This document shows positions 2,335 to 13,981 of a stretch of 16,379 bases of DNA, piece by piece; position 1 is the stretch's first letter, and each line of letters starts with the position of its first letter. The notes under the pieces are model-generated. The model saw nothing but the letters and a program-made list of their open reading frames with translations, had not been told where the DNA came from and searched no databases. Source of the DNA: a virus (lineage: Duplodnaviria > Heunggongvirae > Uroviricota > Caudoviricetes). The position numbers were made by a program, and so were the translations under genes. The stretch is taken from positions 1 to 16,379 of IMG/VR virus record IMGVR_UViG_2602041863_000003. One strand, 5' to 3'.

Positions 2335-2694
2335 ATGCTCATAGATTTGGTTTTACCTTACCCGCCGACGGTGAACACTTACTGGCGACGCCGTGGCAGC
2401 ACATATTTTATCTCGGAGGAGGGAAAGCGTTATCGCCGGGCTGTGGCGCTTATTGTTCGCCAGCAGCGGCTGAAATTAAACCTGTCCGGAAGGCTGGCGA
2501 TAAAGGTGATTGCAGAGCCACCGGATAAACGTCGTCGTGACCTGGACAATATCCTGAAAGCACCACTGGATGCACTGACACATGCGGGGTTGCTTATCGA
2601 CGACGAGCAGTTTGATGAAATTAATATTGTGCGCGGTCAGCTTGTTCCTGGTGGGCGGTTGGGGATAAAAATCACAGAACTGGAGTGCGCATGA
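2335..2694 (+). CDS. rusA: Crossover junction endodeoxyribonuclease RusA (Holliday junction resolvase)
   Basis: 119 aa; LPYPPTVNTYW...RRRDLDNILKAPLDALT...GGRLGIKITE resembles RusA as recalled; RBS AAGAGGTG upstream. Confidence 0.85.
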   Translation: MLIDLVLPYPPTVNTYWRRRGSTYFISEEGKRYRRAVALIVRQQRLKLNLSGRLAIKVIAEPPDKRRRDLDNILKAPLDALTHAGLLIDDEQFDEINIVRGQLVPGGRLGIKITELECA

Positions 2695-3380
2695 ATAACC
2701 AGTATTTACAGTTTGTTCGTGAGCAACTCATGATTGCCACCGCCGATTTGAGTGGATCAACAAAAGGGCAGCTTGAAGCCTGGCAGGAGAATGCCATGTT
2801 CGATACAGGGCGTTACAGGCGAAAAAAAATCCGGTACCGCGATGAAGTGACTGGAAAAATGATAACGCGGGATAATCCACCAATCCCGGGAAAGCAATCG
2901 CTGGCGAAAGGTTCATCAATTGCCCTGGTCAGTCCGGTTGAGTTTTCGACATCATCATGGCGACGCGCCGTTCTGTCTCTTGAAGAGCATCAGAAGGCGT
3001 GGGTGCTGTGGGTATACAGTGAAAATCCGAGTTGGGATTATCAGGTGGTCATTGCGAAATGGGCGTGGGATAAGTTTCAGGTGCATTTTGGCACCAGAAA
3101 AATTACAGGGAAAACGCTTGAGCGTCTGAAGAAATTAATCTGGCTGGCGGCGCAGGATGTCAGGGGGAGGATTACTGGGCGTGACGTCTACCAGCGACAG
3201 GAACTTGCCAGACTGTGTGGAGTTAAGCCTGACAACTGGAGCCATAATTATGCGAACTACTGGCGTGAGATGTGCGACATTTTTAAGAAACTCGATACAG
3301 AATCCTTGATTTGCACCGTGAAAATGAGATCGCAACAAAAAGCGACCTTTTCACGACGAGATATTGCAAAAGTCAATTAA
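2691..3380 (+). CDS. Late-gene antitermination protein Q (lambdoid Q family)
   Basis: ATG at 2691 overlaps rusA stop (ATGA); 229 aa; position after rusA and before a terminator hairpin is the canonical Q locus; similarity to Q is from recall. Confidence 0.75.
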   Translation: MNNQYLQFVREQLMIATADLSGSTKGQLEAWQENAMFDTGRYRRKKIRYRDEVTGKMITRDNPPIPGKQSLAKGSSIALVSPVEFSTSSWRRAVLSLEEHQKAWVLWVYSENPSWDYQVVIAKWAWDKFQVHFGTRKITGKTLERLKKLIWLAAQDVRGRITGRDVYQRQELARLCGVKPDNWSHNYANYWREMCDIFKKLDTESLICTVKMRSQQKATFSRRDIAKVN

Positions 3381-3426: not shown

Positions 3427-3451
3427 AAACCCGCTTAAATGCGGGTTTTTT
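3427..3451 (+). terminator. Intrinsic terminator hairpin downstream of Q (candidate tR'-like)
   Basis: aaacccgcttaaatgcgggtttttt: perfect stem cccgc/gcggg, T6 tail; possible -10 TATAGT at 3417-3422 (weak). Confidence 0.55.
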
Positions 3452-3524
3452 GCTTAACTCTGTGGACCTTTTTATCTGTAGTTGTAAGATATGGATATTC
3501 TTACAATTTAGGTCGGTGAGCTTA

Positions 3525-4289
3525 ATGGAAGAACAGCACGGTAATTACTTTATAAAACGAATTCAGTTGATTGGAAGGGGTGCATTTGGCTTTGTTGAAC
3601 ACGTTAAGGTTTACAACCTCAACAAGGGTGAATGTGGGGATTATGCTAGAAAGGTTTTAGCCCCCGAAAAACCAGAGCTTTTGGCGCAAATAGAGCAGTT
3701 TAGAAGGCGTTTTAAAAGGGAGGTCGTGTATCAATCACATTGCGTACATAGCAATATTGTTCCTATTTATTTGTGCGATTTGTTTGCCGAGAATCCATGG
3801 TTCATTATGGATAAAGCAGAATGTGATCTTGAGCACGAAATAACGAACAACCTTCTTACAACAGATCAAAAAATTTCAATAGTGAAAATGGTATTAGATG
3901 GTGTAGCTCACATCCATGCGAAAGGCTATTTACACAGAGATATAAAACCATTTAATGTCTTGCGATTTAGCGACGGAACATACAAGGTGTCTGATTTTGG
4001 TCTGGTAAAAGATACAAATCCCGAAGGGGATACCACTAAATTGACCGAGATCGGTACCCGTATGGGAAGTACAAGATATATGGCTCCCGAGATTTTATAT
4101 AATGCCGAGTATTCAGTTAAGACTGATGTTTATGCGGTGGGGCGGTTAATTGAGGACTTAAATTTAGATGATAAAAAAATAAAGCCTATCATAGCGAAGT
4201 GTACCAGGATGGATAAAGATGATAGATATCAGACAATAGATGATGTGGCGTTTGATTTTGTGCATTCTTTTTTAAGGAGTGAGTCATGA
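3525..4289 (+). CDS. Eukaryotic-like (Hanks-type) Ser/Thr protein kinase, minimal catalytic domain only
   Basis: Gly-rich loop IGRGAFGFV, candidate beta3 Lys in YARKV, HRDIKPFN catalytic loop, DFG (VSDFGL), APE (YMAPE); ATG 3525 with GGTGAG upstream; ORF-track start 3450 is a TTG inside the terminator. Confidence 0.85.
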   Translation: MEEQHGNYFIKRIQLIGRGAFGFVEHVKVYNLNKGECGDYARKVLAPEKPELLAQIEQFRRRFKREVVYQSHCVHSNIVPIYLCDLFAENPWFIMDKAECDLEHEITNNLLTTDQKISIVKMVLDGVAHIHAKGYLHRDIKPFNVLRFSDGTYKVSDFGLVKDTNPEGDTTKLTEIGTRMGSTRYMAPEILYNAEYSVKTDVYAVGRLIEDLNLDDKKIKPIIAKCTRMDKDDRYQTIDDVAFDFVHSFLRSES

Positions 4290-5029
4290 TTCAGCTGATA
4301 GCGACTTCATCATTCTCGTATCCAAAAGAACCAGGTAGGGTCAACGAAGATTCATTGCTTCCTCCCAAAATTGTAGGGGATGGCATCTTATTTGCCGTAG
4401 CTGATGGTGTAGGTTCATACACTGGTGCCAGTCAGGCTTCATCAATGGCAATTGCTGAACTTTCAGCATTGACAAGCTTATCTTTTGACACAGTTCCGGA
4501 TGTATTTGATGAAGTTAAGCGAAAGGTTATGTCGTTAGCTGATGTTAATGATGAGTTCGATAAAGCTGCTACTACACTTACGTTTTGTTATGTTTGTGAT
4601 AGCGGAATTATTATTGGTCATATTGGTGATTGTCGTTTGTATTGCATTGGAGAGAAGAAAGCATACCAATTGACGAAGGACGATACCAGGCATCAGATGC
4701 TAATTGATCAGAATATTTTTAAACCCAGAGATTTGAAGGATAAACCGGGCAAAAATATCTTAACGACGGCTATAGCCTCAAATGTTGATATGGAATACGA
4801 CTGTGATTTTATCACATGGAAAGATTTACCTAGTATTAACGGGGTATATCATCTGTGTATCATGTCTGATGGGGTTCATAACGTTTGGGAAAAACGCCCC
4901 AGATTTACATCAAATACGATGAGTAATAGTCAGAAGTTTTCTAATGGCATTTTGCGTCGTATAGAGAGAGCCGGACCTGATGATGACTTTTCTTTAGTAA
5001 GTATAATGGTGCGTGTGACGTCAGATTAG
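4286..5029 (+). CDS. PP2C-family Ser/Thr protein phosphatase
   Basis: NEDS, AVADGVGS, IGDCR, IMSDGVHN and C-terminal DDD residues match PP2C metal-binding motifs; AAGGAG RBS 6 nt upstream; ATG overlaps kinase stop (ATGA). Confidence 0.8.
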   Translation: MIQLIATSSFSYPKEPGRVNEDSLLPPKIVGDGILFAVADGVGSYTGASQASSMAIAELSALTSLSFDTVPDVFDEVKRKVMSLADVNDEFDKAATTLTFCYVCDSGIIIGHIGDCRLYCIGEKKAYQLTKDDTRHQMLIDQNIFKPRDLKDKPGKNILTTAIASNVDMEYDCDFITWKDLPSINGVYHLCIMSDGVHNVWEKRPRFTSNTMSNSQKFSNGILRRIERAGPDDDFSLVSIMVRVTSD

Positions 5030-6695: not shown

Positions 6696-6771
6696 GGCCC
6701 TTTAGCTCAGTGGTGAGAGCGAGCGACTCATAATCGCCAGGTCGCTGGTTCAAATCCAGCAAGGGCCACCA
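6696..6771 (+). tRNA. tRNA-Ile2-like (anticodon CAU; Met/Ile-lysidine type)
   Basis: Cloverleaf traced by hand: acceptor ggccctt/aagggcc, anticodon loop cucauaa, T-loop ttcaaat, CCA encoded; close to E. coli ileX as recalled. Confidence 0.85.
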
Positions 6772-6772
6772 A

Positions 6773-6849
6773 CCGTCACCAGTTCATCAGGAAAGAGCGT
6801 CAACCCTTTAAGTTGAGTGTGCGAGGTTCGAGTCCTCGGTGGCGGGCCA
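6773..6849 (+). tRNA. Atypical tRNA-like gene, anticodon read as UUU, with C8 and C33
   Basis: Acceptor ccgtcac/gtggcgg (one G-U), D-arm with G18G19, anticodon stem tcaac/gttga, loop ccuuuaa, T-arm cgagg-ttcgagt-cctcg, CCA encoded; departs from near-universal U8 and U33. Confidence 0.45.
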
Positions 6850-6851
6850 GT

Positions 6852-6927
<76 letters not shown>

Positions 6928-6930
6928 TAT

Positions 6931-7005
<75 letters not shown>

Positions 7006-7305: not shown

Positions 7306-7429
7306 ATTCATTTTTTTCATGGCTCGCTACGGCGGGCCTTTTTCATATCCTCGCCACACCCGGCGCATATCACATCAAATAACGCCGCGCAAAAGGCATC
7401 TGCGGGCGCCTTTGACGGGGTGTTTTTAC

Positions 7430-7451
7430 GGGCCGCTGGTGGCCCTTTTTT
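7430..7451 (+). terminator. Terminator-like hairpin directly upstream of the lysis cassette RBS
   Basis: gggcc-gctggt-ggccc followed by T6; ends 7 nt before AGGAG RBS of the 7471 gene. Confidence 0.5.
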
Positions 7452-7470
7452 ATTTACAGGAGAAAAACGT

Positions 7471-7860
7471 ATGTCTGAACCCTTATCTGGTTCCGGCACG
7501 GCTGCGGCGCTCGGTGGGGCGACGGTATTCGGGCTGTTTACCGGAACGGATTTCGGGATTGTGTTTGGTGCGTTCGCCGGGGCGTTATTTGTGGCAACGA
7601 TGCCGCAGGCGCTTTCAATCTGGCGTGTGGTGGCGCATTTTTTGGTGTCGTTTATCGTCGGCGTGCTGGGGGCGCGCGTGCTGTCAGCCTGGATTGCATC
7701 AAAAACAGGGTATGACGGTACATCGGCAGATGCGCTGTGTGCGGTGCTGGTATCGGTGGTGTCGGTGAAGATTCTGTCGTTCATCCACCAGCAGGATATT
7801 GCATCGCTGGTGTCCGGTGTGTTCTCCCGTCTGCGGGGTGGAGGCGGTAATGTTAAGTAA
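7471..7860 (+). CDS. Membrane protein, putative holin (lysis cassette gene 1)
   Basis: 129 aa, AGGAG RBS 8 nt upstream; Gly/Ala-rich hydrophobic segments consistent with 3 TM helices; first gene of block ending in endolysin. Confidence 0.55.
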   Translation: MSEPLSGSGTAAALGGATVFGLFTGTDFGIVFGAFAGALFVATMPQALSIWRVVAHFLVSFIVGVLGARVLSAWIASKTGYDGTSADALCAVLVSVVSVKILSFIHQQDIASLVSGVFSRLRGGGGNVK

Positions 7861-8125
7861 CCTTCCCGGATTACTGAATGTGGTGTTAAGCACGGTTATC
7901 GTGCTGACGCTCTTTTTTTATCGTCGTGGTGATTCCAGACATAAACCGCTGATGTCGTGGCTGGCCTGGCTGCTGATGCTGCTGTATGCCTTTGCGCCAC
8001 TTTGTTATCTGTGTGGTCGCTTTCCACCCGGTAACTGGCTGGTCGTCCTGATTAACCTGGTGTTCTGCGTGCTGGTGATACGAGCACGCGGGAACGTATC
8101 AAAAATCCTTTCATTACGGAGGTGA
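7850..8125 (+). CDS. Small membrane protein, putative holin/antiholin-type lysis protein (lysis cassette gene 2)
   Basis: ATG 7850 with GGAGG 5 nt upstream, overlaps previous stop; 91 aa with 2-3 hydrophobic helices and basic C-terminus. Confidence 0.5.
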   Translation: MLSNLPGLLNVVLSTVIVLTLFFYRRGDSRHKPLMSWLAWLLMLLYAFAPLCYLCGRFPPGNWLVVLINLVFCVLVIRARGNVSKILSLRR

Positions 8126-8127
8126 GT

Positions 8128-8505
8128 ATGCCCGGTAAATTCAGATTCAGTCGTCGAAGTGAGAAAAATCTGGAGGGCGTCAAACCACAGCTGGTTGCTG
8201 TTGTTCGCCGTGCGCTGGAGCTGACGGAGGTTGACTTCGGTATTACGGAAGGCCTGCGCAGTAAGTATCGCCAGAAGCAGCTGGTCGCGGAAGGGAAAAG
8301 CCAGACCATGAACAGCCGCCACCTGACCGGTGATGCGGTGGATGTTGTGGCCTACATTGGTAGCCAGGTGTCATGGGACTGGCCTCTGTACGAGAAAATC
8401 GCGCAGGCATTTAAGCAGGCTGCCGCAGAGCTGGGAACTGCCATCGAATGGGGCGGGGACTGGAAAACACTGAAAGACGGGCCTCACTTTCAGTTGAAGC
8501 GCTAA
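8128..8505 (+). CDS. Endolysin, peptidase M15 family (L-alanyl-D-glutamate peptidase-like)
   Basis: SRHLTGDAVDV (SxHxxGxAxD zinc-binding motif) and DGPHFQ (DxxH); GGAGG RBS; 125 aa. Confidence 0.8.
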   Translation: MPGKFRFSRRSEKNLEGVKPQLVAVVRRALELTEVDFGITEGLRSKYRQKQLVAEGKSQTMNSRHLTGDAVDVVAYIGSQVSWDWPLYEKIAQAFKQAAAELGTAIEWGGDWKTLKDGPHFQLKR

Positions 8506-8519
8506 TAACCAGGTGGTTT

Positions 8520-8702
8520 ATGAGCCGAAAACACTGGACACACAGAATGCCGCGAACGGCGGCGAAATGGGCACTGGTAGCGATACTGGTGCCTTTTTTC
8601 CTGGTGGGATGCGTTAGCCTGGATAAGGTGCGCCAGCTTTTCGATACGGCCTCGCAGGTCTGCGAAATTGTCGAAAGTGCCAGGCAGTGTATGCAGAACT
8701 GA
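8520..8702 (+). CDS. Small lipoprotein, possible lysis accessory/spanin-like protein
   Basis: Basic N-terminus, hydrophobic stretch WALVAILVPFFLVG and lipobox LVGC; AGGTGG RBS; lies where Rz/Rz1 sit in lambda; not proline-rich like typical o-spanins. Confidence 0.4.
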   Translation: MSRKHWTHRMPRTAAKWALVAILVPFFLVGCVSLDKVRQLFDTASQVCEIVESARQCMQN

Positions 8703-8789
8703 TCGCCTGTAAGAGCAGAATATTGTTGAATCTAAATTTACTTTGAACAGTGGCCCGGATGGAAAGGGCATCTAAATAGGAGCAGAAAA

Positions 8790-8999
8790 ATGTTAACTGT
8801 AAAAGTCATGTCTCAAAATGGTGGGGAAGAGCTCCATTGCGGGCGTAGCATTGGCTATCATCCAGAGCAGCGGAGTATTGCCGTATCGGGAAAGGATGGG
8901 AAAGTCATTCTGAAAGATGGAGATATTGCTTATGTAATGAACCAAAACGCTCAAATAATATCTGTTTATCGGCCCAATAATAGTCAGAAAAACATTTGA
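8790..8999 (+). CDS. Hypothetical small protein (69 aa)
   Basis: AGGAG RBS 7 nt upstream of ATG; AT-rich by eye; no motif recognised. Confidence 0.5.
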   Translation: MLTVKVMSQNGGEELHCGRSIGYHPEQRSIAVSGKDGKVILKDGDIAYVMNQNAQIISVYRPNNSQKNI

Positions 9000-9122
9000 A
9001 TTTCGCAAGTCCAAAGTTCAGTGGTGATCGTTATCAACTAATTGAAATAACAAGCTTATGTTTGTGTAATTGGTGATATAGCATGTTAATGCTGAATATC
9101 AGCGTCAACATGGAGTTATACA

Positions 9123-9338
9123 ATGGTTTTTAAACACTATTACGTGAACAAAAATGCTCAGAGCAATGGCGATCATGAGGTGCATGCTGAGGAATGTTCA
9201 TATCTTCCTTCTGTAGCTAACCGCGATTACCTTGGTTACTATAGTGATTGTTCTTCGGCGGTAACAGAGGCAAAGGCCAAAGGATATTCCCGGGTGAATG
9301 GTTGCTATTGGTGTGCCAATAAGTGCCACACGTCTTAA
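9123..9338 (+). CDS. Hypothetical small Cys-rich protein (71 aa)
   Basis: GGAG RBS; five Cys plus His (C..C, CxxCxxxC near C-terminus) suggest a metal-binding knuckle; terminator follows. Confidence 0.5.
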   Translation: MVFKHYYVNKNAQSNGDHEVHAEECSYLPSVANRDYLGYYSDCSSAVTEAKAKGYSRVNGCYWCANKCHTS

Positions 9339-9357
9339 TCAATTGTCAATAAACCAT

Positions 9358-9381
9358 AAAGGCCGCTCTGCGGCCTTTTTC
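9358..9381 (+). terminator. Intrinsic terminator (ggccgc-tct-gcggcc + T5)
   Basis: Perfect 6-bp GC stem, 3-nt loop, T-run, 20 nt after stop of the 9123 gene. Confidence 0.65.
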
Positions 9382-9649
9382 ATGTTAAAAAAGATTGCGG
9401 CATTACAGCAGCCCTTCACACTGAGTGGCTGCGATAATGTGAGAAATAAAAAACCGGCAGGGGAAATCCATTGAAGATTTGCCGGTGGCAAAAAGATGGC
9501 CATGCTTTCAACCTTAGTCGCAGGGTTACGGAGTGCAACTACGAATGCTGCCGGTATATGGCTGAATGGCGTTTCAATGATGTACGTCATCTTATCTGTA
9601 AATGTTAATGATAAAAGCTCTCATTTGTGCGGGTCCTTCCGGTGGGGTG

Positions 9650-9680
9650 GCCTGCCACGGGGCGGGAGCGTCGCGGAAAA
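9650..9680 (+). other. Candidate cos site (cosN-like), with cosB-like region extending to the terminase small-subunit gene
   Basis: ccacggggcgggagcgtcgcgg resembles lambda cosN (acggggcggcgacctcgcgg) as recalled; sits about 170 bp upstream of the Nu1-like gene; downstream has ttcgtcat like the lambda cosB region. Confidence 0.5.
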
Positions 9681-9845
9681 AGGCTAGTTTTTGAAATTTT
9701 ATTCGTCATCACCATCACTGTAATTGATTGATATTACAGTGATTTTATTTTTATGGTGTCGATTCTGATTGTTTTTTGTTCATCACTAACACCGTTTGCC
9801 TAAAGTTGTTCGCAAGATGCATGTTTAAAACATTCTGGAGCGGGT

Positions 9846-10340
9846 ATGGATCGAGAGTTAAAAAATCTGACGCTGAATATCAGTCAACTGGCGGCATTGT
9901 CAGGTGTACATCGCCAGACTGCTGCGGCAAGGCTGCAAAATCTACCCGTTGCAGGGGGGCATGAAAGCAACCTCAAGCTTTATCGGGTGGTTGATATTGT
10001 GTCGGCATTTCTGGCATTACCACCGCCGGTTGCAGAAGGCGAAATGGACGCGCATGAGCGCAAAGCCTGGTATCAGTCTGAACGTGAGCGTCTTAAGTTC
10101 GAACAGGAAACGGCGCAACTCATTCCGGCCAGTGATGTCAGACGGGAGTTTGCCATCTGGGCAAAAGCGGTCGTGCAGGTGCTGGAGACATTACCGGATA
10201 TTCTTGAACGTGACTGCGGTCTGCAGCCTGCCGCTGTGAGCCGTGTTCAGTCCATTATTGATGATCTGCGCGATCAGATAGCCCTGCGGGTGACCGAAGC
10301 AGGTGCGGATGATGAGGAGGAATTACAGCAGGAGGAGTAA
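9846..10340 (+). CDS. Terminase small subunit (Nu1-like DNA packaging protein)
   Basis: N-terminal wHTH-like LTLNISQLAALSGVHRQTAAARL, acidic C-terminus; GGAG RBS; stop overlaps large-subunit ATG. Confidence 0.75.
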   Translation: MDRELKNLTLNISQLAALSGVHRQTAAARLQNLPVAGGHESNLKLYRVVDIVSAFLALPPPVAEGEMDAHERKAWYQSERERLKFEQETAQLIPASDVRREFAIWAKAVVQVLETLPDILERDCGLQPAAVSRVQSIIDDLRDQIALRVTEAGADDEEELQQEE

Positions 10341-12442
10341 TGCTGAATCAGGAAACCGCAAAGGCAGCACGAACCGATTCAGGTTATATCCTTCGCGCAC
10401 CGAGACGAATGCAGGTTGCTGATGCCGTTGCTCAATATATGCGGGTGCCCATGGGGGCCGGGAACTCAGTCCCGTGGGATCCGCTGGTGGCACCGTATGT
10501 TATTGAGCCGATGAACTGCCTGGCCTCGCGTGAATACGACGCAGTGATATTTGTTGGCCCGGCACGAACCGGCAAGACTATCGGCCTGATTGACGGCTGG
10601 GTGATTTACAACGTGATTTGCGATCCTGCGGATATGCTGATCATTCAGATGACGGAGGAAAAAGCCCGCGAACACTCCAAAAAACGACTTGCCAGAACGT
10701 TTCGCGTCAGCCCGGAAGTGGTCAGTCGCCTGAGTCCGAACAAAAATGACAACAACGTTTATGACAGAACATTCCTTGCTGGTAACTACCTGAAAATCGG
10801 CTGGCCGTCAGTCAATATCATGTCCTCATCAGATTATAAATGCGTCGCGCTGACGGATTATGACCGTTTTCCGGAAGATATTGATGGCGAGGGGGATGCT
10901 TTCTCTCTTGCCTCAAAACGTACCACAACATTTATGTCCAGTGGTATGACGCTGGTGGAGAGTTCCCCCGGCAGGGATGTGAAGGATGTGAAATGGCGAC
11001 GGACTTCACCGCATGAGGCTCCACCAACCACGGGGATCCTGTCGCTCTATAACCGTGGTGATCGCCGTCGCTGGTACTGGCCCTGTCCACACTGTGGTGA
11101 GTATTTTCAGCCCTGCGGCGATGTGGTTGCTGATTTCCGTGATATTGCCGATCCCGTGCTGGCAAGTGAGGCGGCTTATATTCAGTGTCCTTCCTGTTCA
11201 GGACGGATTATGCCTGAACAAAAACGTGAGCTGAACGGACGTGGGGTCTGGTTGCGGGATGGTGAATCCATCAATGCGGATGGCAGTCGTTATGGTGATC
11301 CCCGACGCTCACGTATTGCGTCATTCTGGATGGAGGGTCCGGCAGCTGCTTACCAGACACTCTCGCAACTCGTTTACAAACTGCTTACTGCAGAACAGGA
11401 ATACGAGACAACCGGAAGTGAAGAAACACTCAAGACGGTTATCAATACCGACTGGGGATTACCTTATCTTCCCCGTGCCAGCATGGAGCAACGAAAAAGT
11501 GAACTGCTTGAGCAGCGGGCAGAGCCAGTTCTTTCCCGCAGTGTGCCGGATGGCGTTAATTTCCTTGTGGCGACAGTGGATGTGCAGGCGGGACGTCATC
11601 GCCGTTTTGTGGTTCAGGTAACGGGCTATGGCAGCCGTGGCGAACGCTGGATTATTGATCGTTACAACATCACGCAGTCATTGCGCGGTGACAGCGACGG
11701 GGAGAGCCAGCGAATTGATCCGGCCAGCTACCCGGAAGACTGGGATGTCCTGCTGACGGATGTTTTTCATAAAAGCTGGCCGCTGGCCTCCGATCCTTCT
11801 CAACAAATGCGACTGATGGCAATGGCGGTGGACTCCGGCGGTGAAGACGGGGTCACTGATAATGCCTATAAATTCTGGCGTCGTTGCCGTCGTGATGGCC
11901 TTGGTAAACGTATTTACCTGTTTAAGGGTGACAGCATCCGGCGCGCAAAACTGATCAGCCGTACATTCCCTGATAACACCGGACGAACGGGCCGCCGGGC
12001 GCAGGCCGCAGGTGATGTGCCGCTCTGGCTTCTTCAGACGGATGCCCTGAAAGACCGGGTGAATAACGCGTTATGGCGTGACTCGCCAGGTCCCGGCTAT
12101 GTGCATTTCCCTGACTGGCTGGGGAGCTGGTTTTACGACGAACTGACGTATGAAGAGCGGAGCAGTGACGGGAAATGGAGTAAGCCGGGTCGCGGTGCCA
12201 ACGAAGCTTTTGACCTGATGGTGTATGCCGAGGCTCTGGTCATTCTGCATGGATACGAAAAGATCCGCTGGCCGGATGCACCGGAGTGGGCGAGCCGGGA
12301 AACCTGGCTGGAGTGTGTCCCGGACAGTACCGAACCGTCACCCTCACCGGAACCGGTATCCACGCCTGTTAAAAAACAAAAACGGAAGAAAACAGTAACT
12401 GACGATGTTAACCCCTGGCTGACTTCCGGAGGATGGTTATGA
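10340..12442 (+). CDS. Terminase large subunit (lambda gpA-like)
   Basis: 700 aa; Walker A VGPARTGKT; CPHCGEYF zinc-finger-like motif as in lambda gpA (CPHCGE). Confidence 0.9.
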   Translation: MLNQETAKAARTDSGYILRAPRRMQVADAVAQYMRVPMGAGNSVPWDPLVAPYVIEPMNCLASREYDAVIFVGPARTGKTIGLIDGWVIYNVICDPADMLIIQMTEEKAREHSKKRLARTFRVSPEVVSRLSPNKNDNNVYDRTFLAGNYLKIGWPSVNIMSSSDYKCVALTDYDRFPEDIDGEGDAFSLASKRTTTFMSSGMTLVESSPGRDVKDVKWRRTSPHEAPPTTGILSLYNRGDRRRWYWPCPHCGEYFQPCGDVVADFRDIADPVLASEAAYIQCPSCSGRIMPEQKRELNGRGVWLRDGESINADGSRYGDPRRSRIASFWMEGPAAAYQTLSQLVYKLLTAEQEYETTGSEETLKTVINTDWGLPYLPRASMEQRKSELLEQRAEPVLSRSVPDGVNFLVATVDVQAGRHRRFVVQVTGYGSRGERWIIDRYNITQSLRGDSDGESQRIDPASYPEDWDVLLTDVFHKSWPLASDPSQQMRLMAMAVDSGGEDGVTDNAYKFWRRCRRDGLGKRIYLFKGDSIRRAKLISRTFPDNTGRTGRRAQAAGDVPLWLLQTDALKDRVNNALWRDSPGPGYVHFPDWLGSWFYDELTYEERSSDGKWSKPGRGANEAFDLMVYAEALVILHGYEKIRWPDAPEWASRETWLECVPDSTEPSPSPEPVSTPVKKQKRKKTVTDDVNPWLTSGGWL

Positions 12443-12633
12443 ACCAGAATGATATCGAAGCCATGATTCAGCGTTATACGGAAGCTGAAATGGCGGTGCT
12501 GGACGGAAAATCCGTCACCTTTAATGGTCAGCAGATGACCATGGAAAACTTATCTGAGATCCGGCAGGGACGGCAGGAGTGGGAGCGCCGCCTTGCGGCT
12601 CTGATTACACGACGACGGGGGCATCCCGGGTAG
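12439..12633 (+). CDS. Head-tail joining protein W-like (gpW family)
   Basis: About 64 aa ending ...ITRRRGHPG, like the lambda gpW C-terminus (...RRRGPAGFYV) as recalled; start overlaps terminase stop (ATG at 12433 or 12439). Confidence 0.65.
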   Translation: MNQNDIEAMIQRYTEAEMAVLDGKSVTFNGQQMTMENLSEIRQGRQEWERRLAALITRRRGHPG

Positions 12634-12688
12634 CGGTGTTTATGATGCAGATATCAGTGGTGCATCGACATTAATCCTCCACTTCAAT

Positions 12689-13063
12689 ATGAATGCGGGG
12701 AGTTGCCCTGCTGTACAGTTCCGCGTGAATTACAGGAACGGCGGTATTTTTTATCGTTCAGCGCGTGATGGTTATGGCTTTGAAGCTAACTGGTCAGAGT
12801 TTTACACCACAACACGCAAACCCTCTGCGGGGGATGTTGGTGCATATACGCAGGCAGAATGTAACTCAAGGTTTATTACAGGTATTCGCCTTGGCGGTCT
12901 GTCATCTGTTCAGACATGGAAAGGCCCCGGCTGGTCTGACAGGTCAGGTTATGTCGTTACGGGTTCAGTTAACGGAAACCGTGATGAATTAATTGATACA
13001 ACTCAGGCAAGGCCAATTCAGTATTGCATTAATGGGACGTGGTATAACGCGGGGAGTATTTAA
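12689..13063 (+). pseudogene. Side tail fibre C-terminal fragment (5'-truncated remnant fused downstream of W)
   Basis: Lies immediately upstream of a tail-fibre assembly gene; the frame stays open upstream of ATG 12689 to at least 12623 with no start, indicating a truncated gene at a deletion junction. Confidence 0.55.
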
Positions 13064-13065
13064 CG

Positions 13066-13599
13066 ATGATGCACTTAAAAAACATTACTGCTGGCAACCC
13101 TAAAACAAAAGAGCAATACCAGCTAACAAAGCAATTTAACATCAAATGGCTTTATTCAGATGATGGAAAAAACTGGTATGAGGAACAAAAGAATTTCCAG
13201 CCAGACACTTTGAAAATGGTCTATGACCATAACGGCGTTATTATTTGTATTGAAAAGGATGTTTCAGCAATTAATCCAGAGGGTGCAAGCGTCGTTGAAT
13301 TACCTGATATTACAGCAAATCGCCGGGCTGATATTTCGGGGAAATGGATGTTCAAAGATGGCGTAGTGATAAAGCGAACTTATACCGAGGAAGAGCAGAG
13401 GCAACAAGCGGAAAATGAAAAGCAAAGCCTGTTGCAACTTGTCAGGGATAAAACCCAGCTATGGGACTCACAGCTACGGCTGGGCATCATTTCCGACGAG
13501 AATAAACAAAAATTAACCGAGTGGATGCTCTATGCGCAGAAAGTCGAATCTACAGACACCTCCAGCCTGCCAGTAACATTTCCAGAACAACCAGCATGA
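13066..13599 (+). CDS. tfa: Tail fibre assembly protein (Tfa)
   Basis: 177 aa; N-terminus MMHLKNITAGNP; C-terminal LTEWMLYAQKVESTDTSSLPVTFPEQPA typical of lambdoid/e14 Tfa. Confidence 0.8.
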   Translation: MMHLKNITAGNPKTKEQYQLTKQFNIKWLYSDDGKNWYEEQKNFQPDTLKMVYDHNGVIICIEKDVSAINPEGASVVELPDITANRRADISGKWMFKDGVVIKRTYTEEEQRQQAENEKQSLLQLVRDKTQLWDSQLRLGIISDENKQKLTEWMLYAQKVESTDTSSLPVTFPEQPA

Positions 13600-13627
13600 A
13601 ACAAGGCCCGATAGCGGGCCTTAATTT

Positions 13628-13981
13628 TTATTCAGGCTTTTGTGGCCATTCAGGATTTGCCGTATCCACACGGCTGACCAGAACACTGTAGCGTCCCCAT
13701 GCTTCCAGTCGTGTGCGTTCCTCGTCTGTTGCCATATTCAGCCTGACAGCGCGTTCCAGCGGCCGAATAACGCTTTCTGCTTCGGAAAGTAACGCGGCCT
13801 TTTGTGATTCGGCCTGTTGTTGCTGTTCGTCAGCCGTATAAATCCGTTTAACGACTGCGTCGTCCTTAAACATCCACTTTCCGGAATCATCAGCGCGGCG
13901 GTTGGCTGGTGAACTTTCGATAGTGCGAGTATTGAATGATTTCCAGCCGTTATCGATTTTATATAACTGCCGTGGAATTAT
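13628..13981 (-). pseudogene. Inverted tail fibre assembly gene fragment (tfa', 5'-truncated)
   Basis: Minus-strand translation ...[31 protein letters not shown]...[25 protein letters not shown] parallels the plus-strand Tfa ([31 protein letters not shown]); frame extends upstream of Met 13873 to an in-frame stop at 13982-13984 with no start. Confidence 0.7.

Follow-up and report, generated by a model that had tools for sequence, protein, structure and literature searches.

A microhomology-level late-region deletion in an ompW-integrated lambdoid prophage of Escherichia coli and the repeated use of its adaptor-gene breakpoint

The 16,379 nt of DNA analysed here (the window) contain the right half of a lambda-like prophage that is inserted in E. 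coli ompW. In our reading, to which we assign a probability of roughly 0.9, this is one half of a prophage of the mEp460/cdtI type that has lost about 18.8 kb by illegitimate recombination at the level of microhomology, and its breakpoint on the side of the W-like adaptor gene is reused in other prophages. The joint connects the truncated adaptor gene (W') to the last part of a side tail-fibre gene (stf), and the odd open frame at this locus is settled as a dead 3' piece of a tail-fibre gene.

Prophage layout and deletion forms at the ompW locus

The prophage fills the window leftward of the chromosomal genes (Table 1). The 3' remnant of ompW marks the right prophage-chromosome junction (attR side), after which yciE, yciF and yciG follow. 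According to the ORFs of the window and the family scans, the late order Q, lysis, terminase and adaptor is lambdoid, and the large terminase has the same length as in mEp460. From 12634 to the ompW remnant, neither the ORF list nor the Pfam and PHROG scans gave any ORF of portal, capsid or tail type, and this agrees with the earlier note, which had described these genes as absent after terminase and W from the letters alone. Structural genes located elsewhere in the prophage would have spoken against such a loss; the left prophage arm, as read in the closest relative (strain 2014EL-1346-6), contains early genes only. With its host junctions, its lambdoid late order and its missing particle genes the element is a defective lambdoid prophage.

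Table 1. Features of the window with their positions (nt), strand and supporting matches
Feature	Position	Strand	Remarks
Leftmost listed prophage genes: Doc/Fic toxin, DUF968, RusA, Q			
Q antiterminator	2685-3380		profile assignment
Eukaryote-type Ser/Thr kinase (Pkinase) and PP2C phosphatase pair	3450-5029		directly downstream of Q
DNA methyltransferase and four tRNA genes	tRNAs 6696-7005		tRNAs between methyltransferase and holins
Two holins	7420-8125		full length; Pfam/PHROG scans
M15 endolysin	8122-8505		full length; Pfam/PHROG scans
Small terminase, DUF1441 type	9846-10340	+	full length; Pfam DUF1441 E=2.7e-41, phrog_141
Large terminase, GpA type, 700 aa	10340-12442	+	full length; Pfam GpA_ATPase and GpA_nuclease, phrog_15
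W' (truncated W-like head-tail adaptor)	12439-12633, alternative ATG 12433	+	phrog_118 positions 1-66/76
Side tail-fibre gene (stf), 3' fragment	12632-13063	+	stf codons 847-989 of 989 plus stop; no own start before 12689
Tail-fibre assembly chaperone, U'/Tfa type, 177 aa	13066-13599	+	full length; Caudo_TAP E=8e-37, phrog_136 2-177/178
Second tail-fibre assembly gene, C-terminal half	13628-13909	-	Caudo_TAP positions 44-131/131
ompW, displaced 3' end, 41 codons	14392-14517	+	Pfam OmpW 155-195/195, E=1e-14; relatives' annotation
yciE, yciF, yciG	right end of window, after ompW remnant		chromosomal ORFs

Three further observations concern the prophage as a whole. It enters ompW at the 3' end of the gene, with a full-length ompW regenerated at attL (L212 17614-18252) and only the tail left at attR. 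The pair of kinase and PP2C phosphatase is kept in every variant of the ompW prophage and also in the intact IrN prophage. For the four phage tRNA genes ARAGORN predicts the anticodons CAT, TTT, TTT and TCC, and RefSeq relatives annotate three tRNAs only (Ile, Lys, Gly), one Lys-type call at 6773-6849 being unannotated there.

The same ompW prophage is present in O6:H16-type and other diarrhoeal isolates with flanks that are 99.9-100% identical, and its late-region deletion differs from strain to strain (window 7381-13612 compared with L003, L007, L009 and L010). W' is fused to stf in the window and in the independent assembly L060, whereas L1_E925 has a truncated endolysin gene (window 8243) fused to the same stf point. 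A truncated holin gene (7773) is fused to a truncated J in 2014EL-1346-6, position 7381 to a truncated lom in E1739, and a truncated holin gene (7756) to the end of tfa (13612) in E1316; stf is complete in 2014EL-1346-6 as well as in E1739, where it encodes 989 aa. The joints of these forms carry 2-4 nt of microhomology (AT, GATT, TA, TA within TA.CGG). As the window form and the 2014EL form each keep DNA that is missing from the other, neither derives from the other, and five late-region deletions on near-identical flanks thus indicate several independent and very recent losses.

A separate peculiarity of L1_E925 (L007) is its tfa gene with 17 clustered SNPs at window-equivalent 13199-13413, compared to 3 in the other 3.5 kb right of the joint. 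This pattern points to a gene conversion from the cassette of another prophage.

The joint and its two parents

BLAST similarity of the mEp460 type ends at 12636 and tail-fibre similarity begins at 12631. Because the alignments of the W parent and of the stf parent both fit the window across TA, the crossover is this shared TA at 12631-12632, with 12630 as the last base that belongs to W only and 12633 as the first one that belongs to stf only. The W parent reads ...CATCCCGGG-TA-CCGGCTGG, the stf parent ...AACTGGAA-TA-GCGGTGTT and the window ...CATCCCGGG-TA-GCGGTGTT. At the joint this corresponds to GGGTACCGG in W, GGAATAGCGG in stf and GGGTAGCGG in the window, and the stf-derived sequence that follows the W allele there is TAGCGGTGTTTATG.... 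The shared TA sits inside an imperfect 6-mer (TACCGG versus TAGCGG) with five of six bases the same. With few shared bases, no long homology and no recombinase site, the joint has the features of an illegitimate deletion mediated by microhomology.

The left parent is represented by mEp460, Ayreon, phi458 and 569R4, whose DNA is 98.9-99.2% identical to the window in a stretch that begins ahead of the small terminase gene and ends at the joint, past which they run on into portal; for cdtI the DNA identity over both terminase genes and the part of W before the joint is 86.9%. The right parent is the intact stf-tfa region of E. coli prophages with 98.8-100% identity from 12631 onward; the matches of 100% include the same ompW locus in strains 2014EL-1346-6 and E1739. 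Mu/D108 S' (96.5%) and the P1-like D6 and RCS47 are 96-97% identical to the tail-fibre side at DNA level. In mEp460 and IrN, which are both intact, W is followed by portal and by the remaining structural genes through J, lom and stf. The alignment to intact lambdoid phages, which the earlier note had proposed, thus places the breakpoint at 12631-12632, and the large internal deletion that it had postulated between the packaging genes and the tail-fibre end is supported by the mapped joint and by both parents, which are intact elsewhere.

With the annotated start W' encodes 64 aa, and with the ATG at 12433 it encodes 66 aa. The W protein of mEp460 (2618-2830) has 70 aa and ends in GHPGYRLARF, of which W' has lost the last six codons (YRLARF), and its TAG stop is made by the joint. 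The designation W, taken over from the earlier note, agrees with the adaptor position and with phrog_118, but the W-like ORF showed no match to the Pfam gpW profile (its sole Pfam hit is DUF6148 with 18.5 bits, under the cut-off of 27) and 'W' is therefore a name by position only. Many W proteins in the databases (P0038, P0045, P0046, P0053, P0079, P0088, P0089) are frameshifted in the ACGACGACGGGGG run just upstream of the breakpoint, which could be genuine slippage or homopolymer sequencing error.

On the other side of the joint, the open frame begins at 12605, just behind a TGA (12602-12604), and is closed by a TAA (13061-13063). No ATG, GTG or TTG in this frame precedes the internal ATG at 12689, from which gene callers annotate a 124-aa ORF. 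The earlier note had already recognized a start-less frame from at least 12623 that leads into a tail-fibre-type region and ends at 13063; fibre DNA begins only at 12631, and 12605-12630 is W DNA in a different reading frame. The translation matches Pfam gp37_C (26.1 bits, cut-off 22.5), phrog_454 (E=4e-32) and seven more tail-fibre PHROGs, so that, together with the DNA identity of 96-100%, the predicted tail-fibre homology holds. The fragment represents the C-terminal, receptor-binding part of a tail fibre of the Mu S / P1 S / T4 gp37 type.

Such a boundary might in principle also be a natural mosaic one, in which a tail-fibre host-range module was gained beside W by modular exchange, and indeed a conserved C-terminal module of the fibre starts ~25 nt upstream of the joint (KAVGWNWNSGVYDA...) with upstream sequences that differ among phages. 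However, the fragment is start-less and out of frame with W, the last codons of W are gone, ~19 kb of essential genes lie between both points in every intact relative, and 38 of 38 IMG/VR hits to the stf side are in an intact fibre context, which makes a mosaic origin hardly conceivable.

For the deletion that we favour instead, the missing stretch of ~18.8 kb is the sum of ~16.3 kb that separate the W break and the start of stf in mEp460 or IrN and 2.5 kb of stf; as no fully intact ompW copy of this prophage was recovered, this size is a composite of mEp460/IrN and E1739. The lost DNA reaches from 18 nt before the end of the W-like gene into stf and includes the first 846 codons of the latter as well as the genes in between, namely portal, protease-capsid, connectors, tail tube, tape measure, tip genes, J and lom. 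At the same time the joint has provided W' with its new stop codon and left the tail-fibre 3' piece without promoter and start.

The joint is not an assembly artefact, since 13,941 nt that span it are 100% identical between the window and the independent assembly L060 (GCA_014583555.1). A search of 5,426 complete E. coli genomes gave no copy of this joint. Taken by itself the deletion scar is a further example of the familiar decay of prophages, and its exact sequence is already present in public assemblies.

Recurrent breakpoints in W and stf

Public assemblies of E. coli contain at least 30 different deletions whose left end is the W 3' end CGGGTACCGG, with right ends from portal to the start of tfa (loci L059-L068, L180 and L213-L215; proteins P0002-P0029 and P0121; window 12625-12636). 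The exact 64-aa W' is encoded on 239 contigs, and in the 10 of these 239 places that were read ...CATCCCGGGTA is followed by nine different sequences: one portal-internal, one in the tape-measure gene, the tfa start codon, five stf sites and the window's own. L180 fuses W' to J and L213-L215 add one more partner; in all, 11 right partners of the W site were verified at DNA level (portal, tape measure, J, several stf sites and the tfa start). In seven of eight cases the native right partner has TA (or GTA, GGTA) just before the joint.

Look-ups with the exact W' protein confine the joint to a 3-nt window by construction, and because of this bias we also searched W homologues by similarity. Among the best 120 clusters, W-fusions diverge at codons 64-66 (GGG TAC CGG) in 21 cases, at codons 51-63 in three and at codons 67-70 in none; this distribution, which sees codons ~51 to 70 only, is the less biased evidence. 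All located partners of the W-fusions lie downstream in the same orientation. They share TACCGG, GGTACCG, CGGGTAC, TACCG, GGTA, TAC or TA with CGGGTACCGG, and the microhomology across the W-site joints amounts to 0-7 nt. Exact truncated W proteins of 59-69 aa were looked up as a control; they exist in all lengths, at least part of them being 'partial' at contig ends (7 of the 10 places read for 65 aa).

Two other counts are less in favour of a preferred site: among complete E. coli genomes the intact W-portal junction is the best match in 1864 of 1929 matching records, and in 120 IMG/VR contigs only one of about eight breaks is located at the W site. Scans of viral and metagenome sequences for non-intact followers of GGGTA returned the synonymous TAT allele only. 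W-site joints seem to arise on the TAT allele as well as on TAC.

On the tail-fibre side, the point GGAA-TA-GCGG (window 12631-12633; L007 9243; L004 6006) is fused to three left partners, which are W in the window, the M15 endolysin gene in L1_E925 and ynaK of a Rac remnant in strain Combat13F7, an intact ynaK being found in ST2747. All three partners read CGG(G)TA and all three joints fit one switch point within ATA. A prophage at the prfC locus breaks 25 nt further upstream in stf, again at TA. Further stf-side joints were not detected in the scan of genome contigs. A similarity of the flanks beyond the microhomology (GG-TA-NCGG) was also considered for the ETEC joints and is not above expectation for the few pairs. 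As a side observation, another site inside stf, ..CCGCGCTGACAGACAATACGC (L066 10195; L162, portal position 678), is the right end of a W joint and of a portal joint that lie 1 nt apart, and it may be a second reused right-hand point.

We propose that these deletions would start from a fixed DNA end or a stalled (nascent) 3' end within CGGGTACCGG, which would be rejoined downstream wherever a few bases match, either by template switch or by microhomology-mediated end joining, and in one step or in several that are anchored at the same W point. Since re-pairing at the W site may recur, the present joint may be the last of several steps.

The joint might also go back to two or more successive deletions. 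An earlier and shorter one, anchored at W' and reaching, for instance, portal or the tape-measure gene, might later have been extended rightward to stf, or the fusions of endolysin and ynaK to stf might have been derived leftward from the fusion of W' to stf. There are many W' joints with nested right ends, three of them within 60 nt of one partner region, and ynaK (GCCCGGTA) shares 4-7 nt with the W' joint (CCCGGGTA) and 2 nt only with intact stf. In L1_E925, however, the agreement of the joint (CGGTATAGCGG) with intact stf is longer by one base than its agreement with the W' joint, a crossover at GGTA, as would be expected, should have given CGGTAGCGG and not CGGTATAGCGG, and no intermediate is recorded in the window. 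Successive deletions are thus conceivable, though we think them rather unlikely.

Another way to obtain one fixed end, one variable end and short microhomology would be an IS element that was once inserted at the W site and was removed together with a variable part of its flank by its transposase and the IS-excision enhancer (IEE), followed by rejoining at microhomology. In PMC9943667, which cites Kusumoto et al. 2011, IEE-dependent IS excision is reported to cause one-sided deletions of a few nt to >40 kb beside the IS; the enzyme joins DNA ends at microhomology and occurs in >30% of E. coli assemblies (PMC9943667). IS1203 is carried by related ETEC prophages. These and other microhomology-associated one-sided deletions likewise have one end fixed and the other varying to tens of kb, with 0-7 nt at the joint. 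What distinguishes the W-site deletions is that no IS is present at or near the fixed end: about 40 contexts were read without an IS or a fragment of it at the W site, and contigs that end at this site stop at GGGTAC(C), with no IS sequence present. Moreover, the site is reused at several chromosomal loci and probably on both W alleles, which would need repeated insertion at one and the same nucleotide. An IS/IEE origin is therefore improbable to us, and recombination at the level of microhomology from a W-side end remains the preferred explanation.

Several candidates for the cause of such an end were tried and rejected. Folding of both parental sites as DNA gave stabilities that do not exceed those of shuffled sequences (z = 0.2-0.7), which does not suggest pausing at a hairpin or palindrome. 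A cos or pseudo-cos at the W site was discarded, as ACGGGG is all that the W site has in common with the cos-like, GC-rich stretch at ~9630-9680; the records of cdtI-type phages begin ~235 nt ahead of the small terminase gene. A DNA end directed by Chi was also dismissed, there being no Chi and only the nearby GCTGGCGA on the deleted side. A role of restriction sites (KpnI GGTACC, RCCGGY, CCGG) was dropped on weak evidence, namely their absence from the other left partners and the joints that seem to occur on the TAT allele too.

The chances are about evenly balanced that the W 3' end (CGGGTACCGG, 18-24 nt before the portal start) is truly fragile or targeted by an enzyme in widespread E. coli lambdoid prophages. 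One-sided deletions of 0.5-20 kb would then repeatedly strip the morphogenesis genes, so that domestication would be channelled and not random, and the stf point GGAA-TA-GCGG would be reused in the same manner. We found no description of a recurrent use of the W and stf breakpoints in the searchable literature. Deletions with one exact shared endpoint and variable others were reportedly described for lambda by Davis and Parkinson in 1971, where they are said to be promoted by Int and anchored at attP; the W-site deletions differ from these as their fixed point is not att and no recombinase is implicated.

The remnant cassette and the capacities of the prophage

The DNA of D108 that matches the tail-fibre side of the window is the S'-U'-U part of the invertible G segment, and the chaperone gene at 13066-13599 corresponds to U' of D108. 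The second assembly gene (13628-13909), which relatives annotate as 'partial, missing N-terminus', forms the inverted repeat I1 with the first tfa. Of the opposed Sv-U sets, one Sv fragment with U' and only the C-terminal half of the opposed U are thus left in the window. This Sv', U' and opposed U layout is the same as in the G segment of Mu/D108 (Gin), the C segment of P1 (Cin) and the P segment of e14 (Pin), from which the window differs in that crossover site and invertase are missing and the second chaperone gene is reduced to one half. Crossover sites were searched with a Hin/Gin/Cin/Pin consensus, which recovers both annotated repeats of D108, at a threshold of 14/18. At this threshold no site was detected in the window, while the same scan finds those of D108 and of the relatives: where stf of the ompW prophage is intact, a gix-like site precedes the position of the joint by 538 nt (L003 5463, L009 10192), and Rac-type and prfC-type relatives have a second one at the distal end of their cassette. 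From the truncated tfa to the ompW remnant no ORF gave a Pfam hit; an invertase ORF is absent there, and relatives at the same locus annotate none. Without crossover site, invertase and one half of the second chaperone gene the cassette of the window cannot invert, and the tail-fibre piece is an inert remnant of an invertible host-range cassette of the Mu G-segment / P1 C-segment type. Its left crossover site was lost in the deletion, and its right half and the invertase are gone too.

Given this origin, one could ask whether the cassette's own invertase of the Pin/Gin type has caused the deletion by acting between directly oriented crossover sites or quasi-sites. The right-hand DNA is a cassette of the Mu/D108/P1 S'-U'-U type, pin adjoins the cassette in related prophages, and a 2-bp TA overlap resembles the products of serine recombinases. 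The D108-validated scan, however, finds no site at the joint, in W, in ynaK or in the endolysin gene, and the real left site in intact stf has the core TC and not TA. In addition, the microhomology is variable (0-7 nt), the L1_E925 joint is offset by 1 nt and the joint sequence has no inverted-repeat partner. As crossover sites are absent at the joint and the remnant is inert, the joint is not regarded as an invertase product, an origin that we consider very improbable.

The earlier note had further concluded that the prophage cannot lose its cargo, including the kinase and phosphatase, by excision and lysis on its own. This part is not supported, since the loss of virion genes does not block excision: strain 2014EL-1346-6, which is 100% identical to the window over the 6.3 kb shared, has full-length integrase and excisionase genes beside ompW, and the lysis and terminase genes of the window itself are full length. 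It is safe to state that the element cannot form particles unaided. Probably the prophage is still inducible, lyses its host and cuts cos; excision, host killing and helper-assisted transfer may still take place. A transfer of defective prophages was reportedly documented for O157 by Asadulghani and co-workers in 2009.

The closest phages, mEp460, Ayreon, phi458 and cdtI, are lambdoid siphoviruses whose small terminase is of the DUF1441 type, whose large terminase is of the GpA type and whose protease and capsid are fused, and they have the same late gene order as the window, from which portal, J, lom and the genes up to stf are missing. Loss of morphogenesis genes with retention of cargo and of regulatory, lysis or packaging remnants is known from Qin, Rac, DLP12 and e14 of E. 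coli K-12 and from the Sp prophages of O157 Sakai. These cryptic prophages resemble the window in having packaging-gene remnants beside remnants of stf, tfa and pin, and relatives at the Qin locus carry this exact W'. In contrast to them, both terminase subunits of the window are intact, its break is mapped to the base and its decay is very recent.

In summary, the deletion has removed the formation of particles from this prophage but not necessarily its excision or the killing of its host, and a helper phage could still mobilise the element. Near-identical diarrhoeal E. coli carry five deletions of one and the same prophage, and in dozens of other prophages the break falls on the same few bases of this gene for the adaptor. 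It is this repeated use of the adaptor-gene bases and of one stf point that was not anticipated and that is worth pursuing. If the site preference is mutational, it would offer a concrete sequence with which to test how functional prophages so quickly turn into defective ones.
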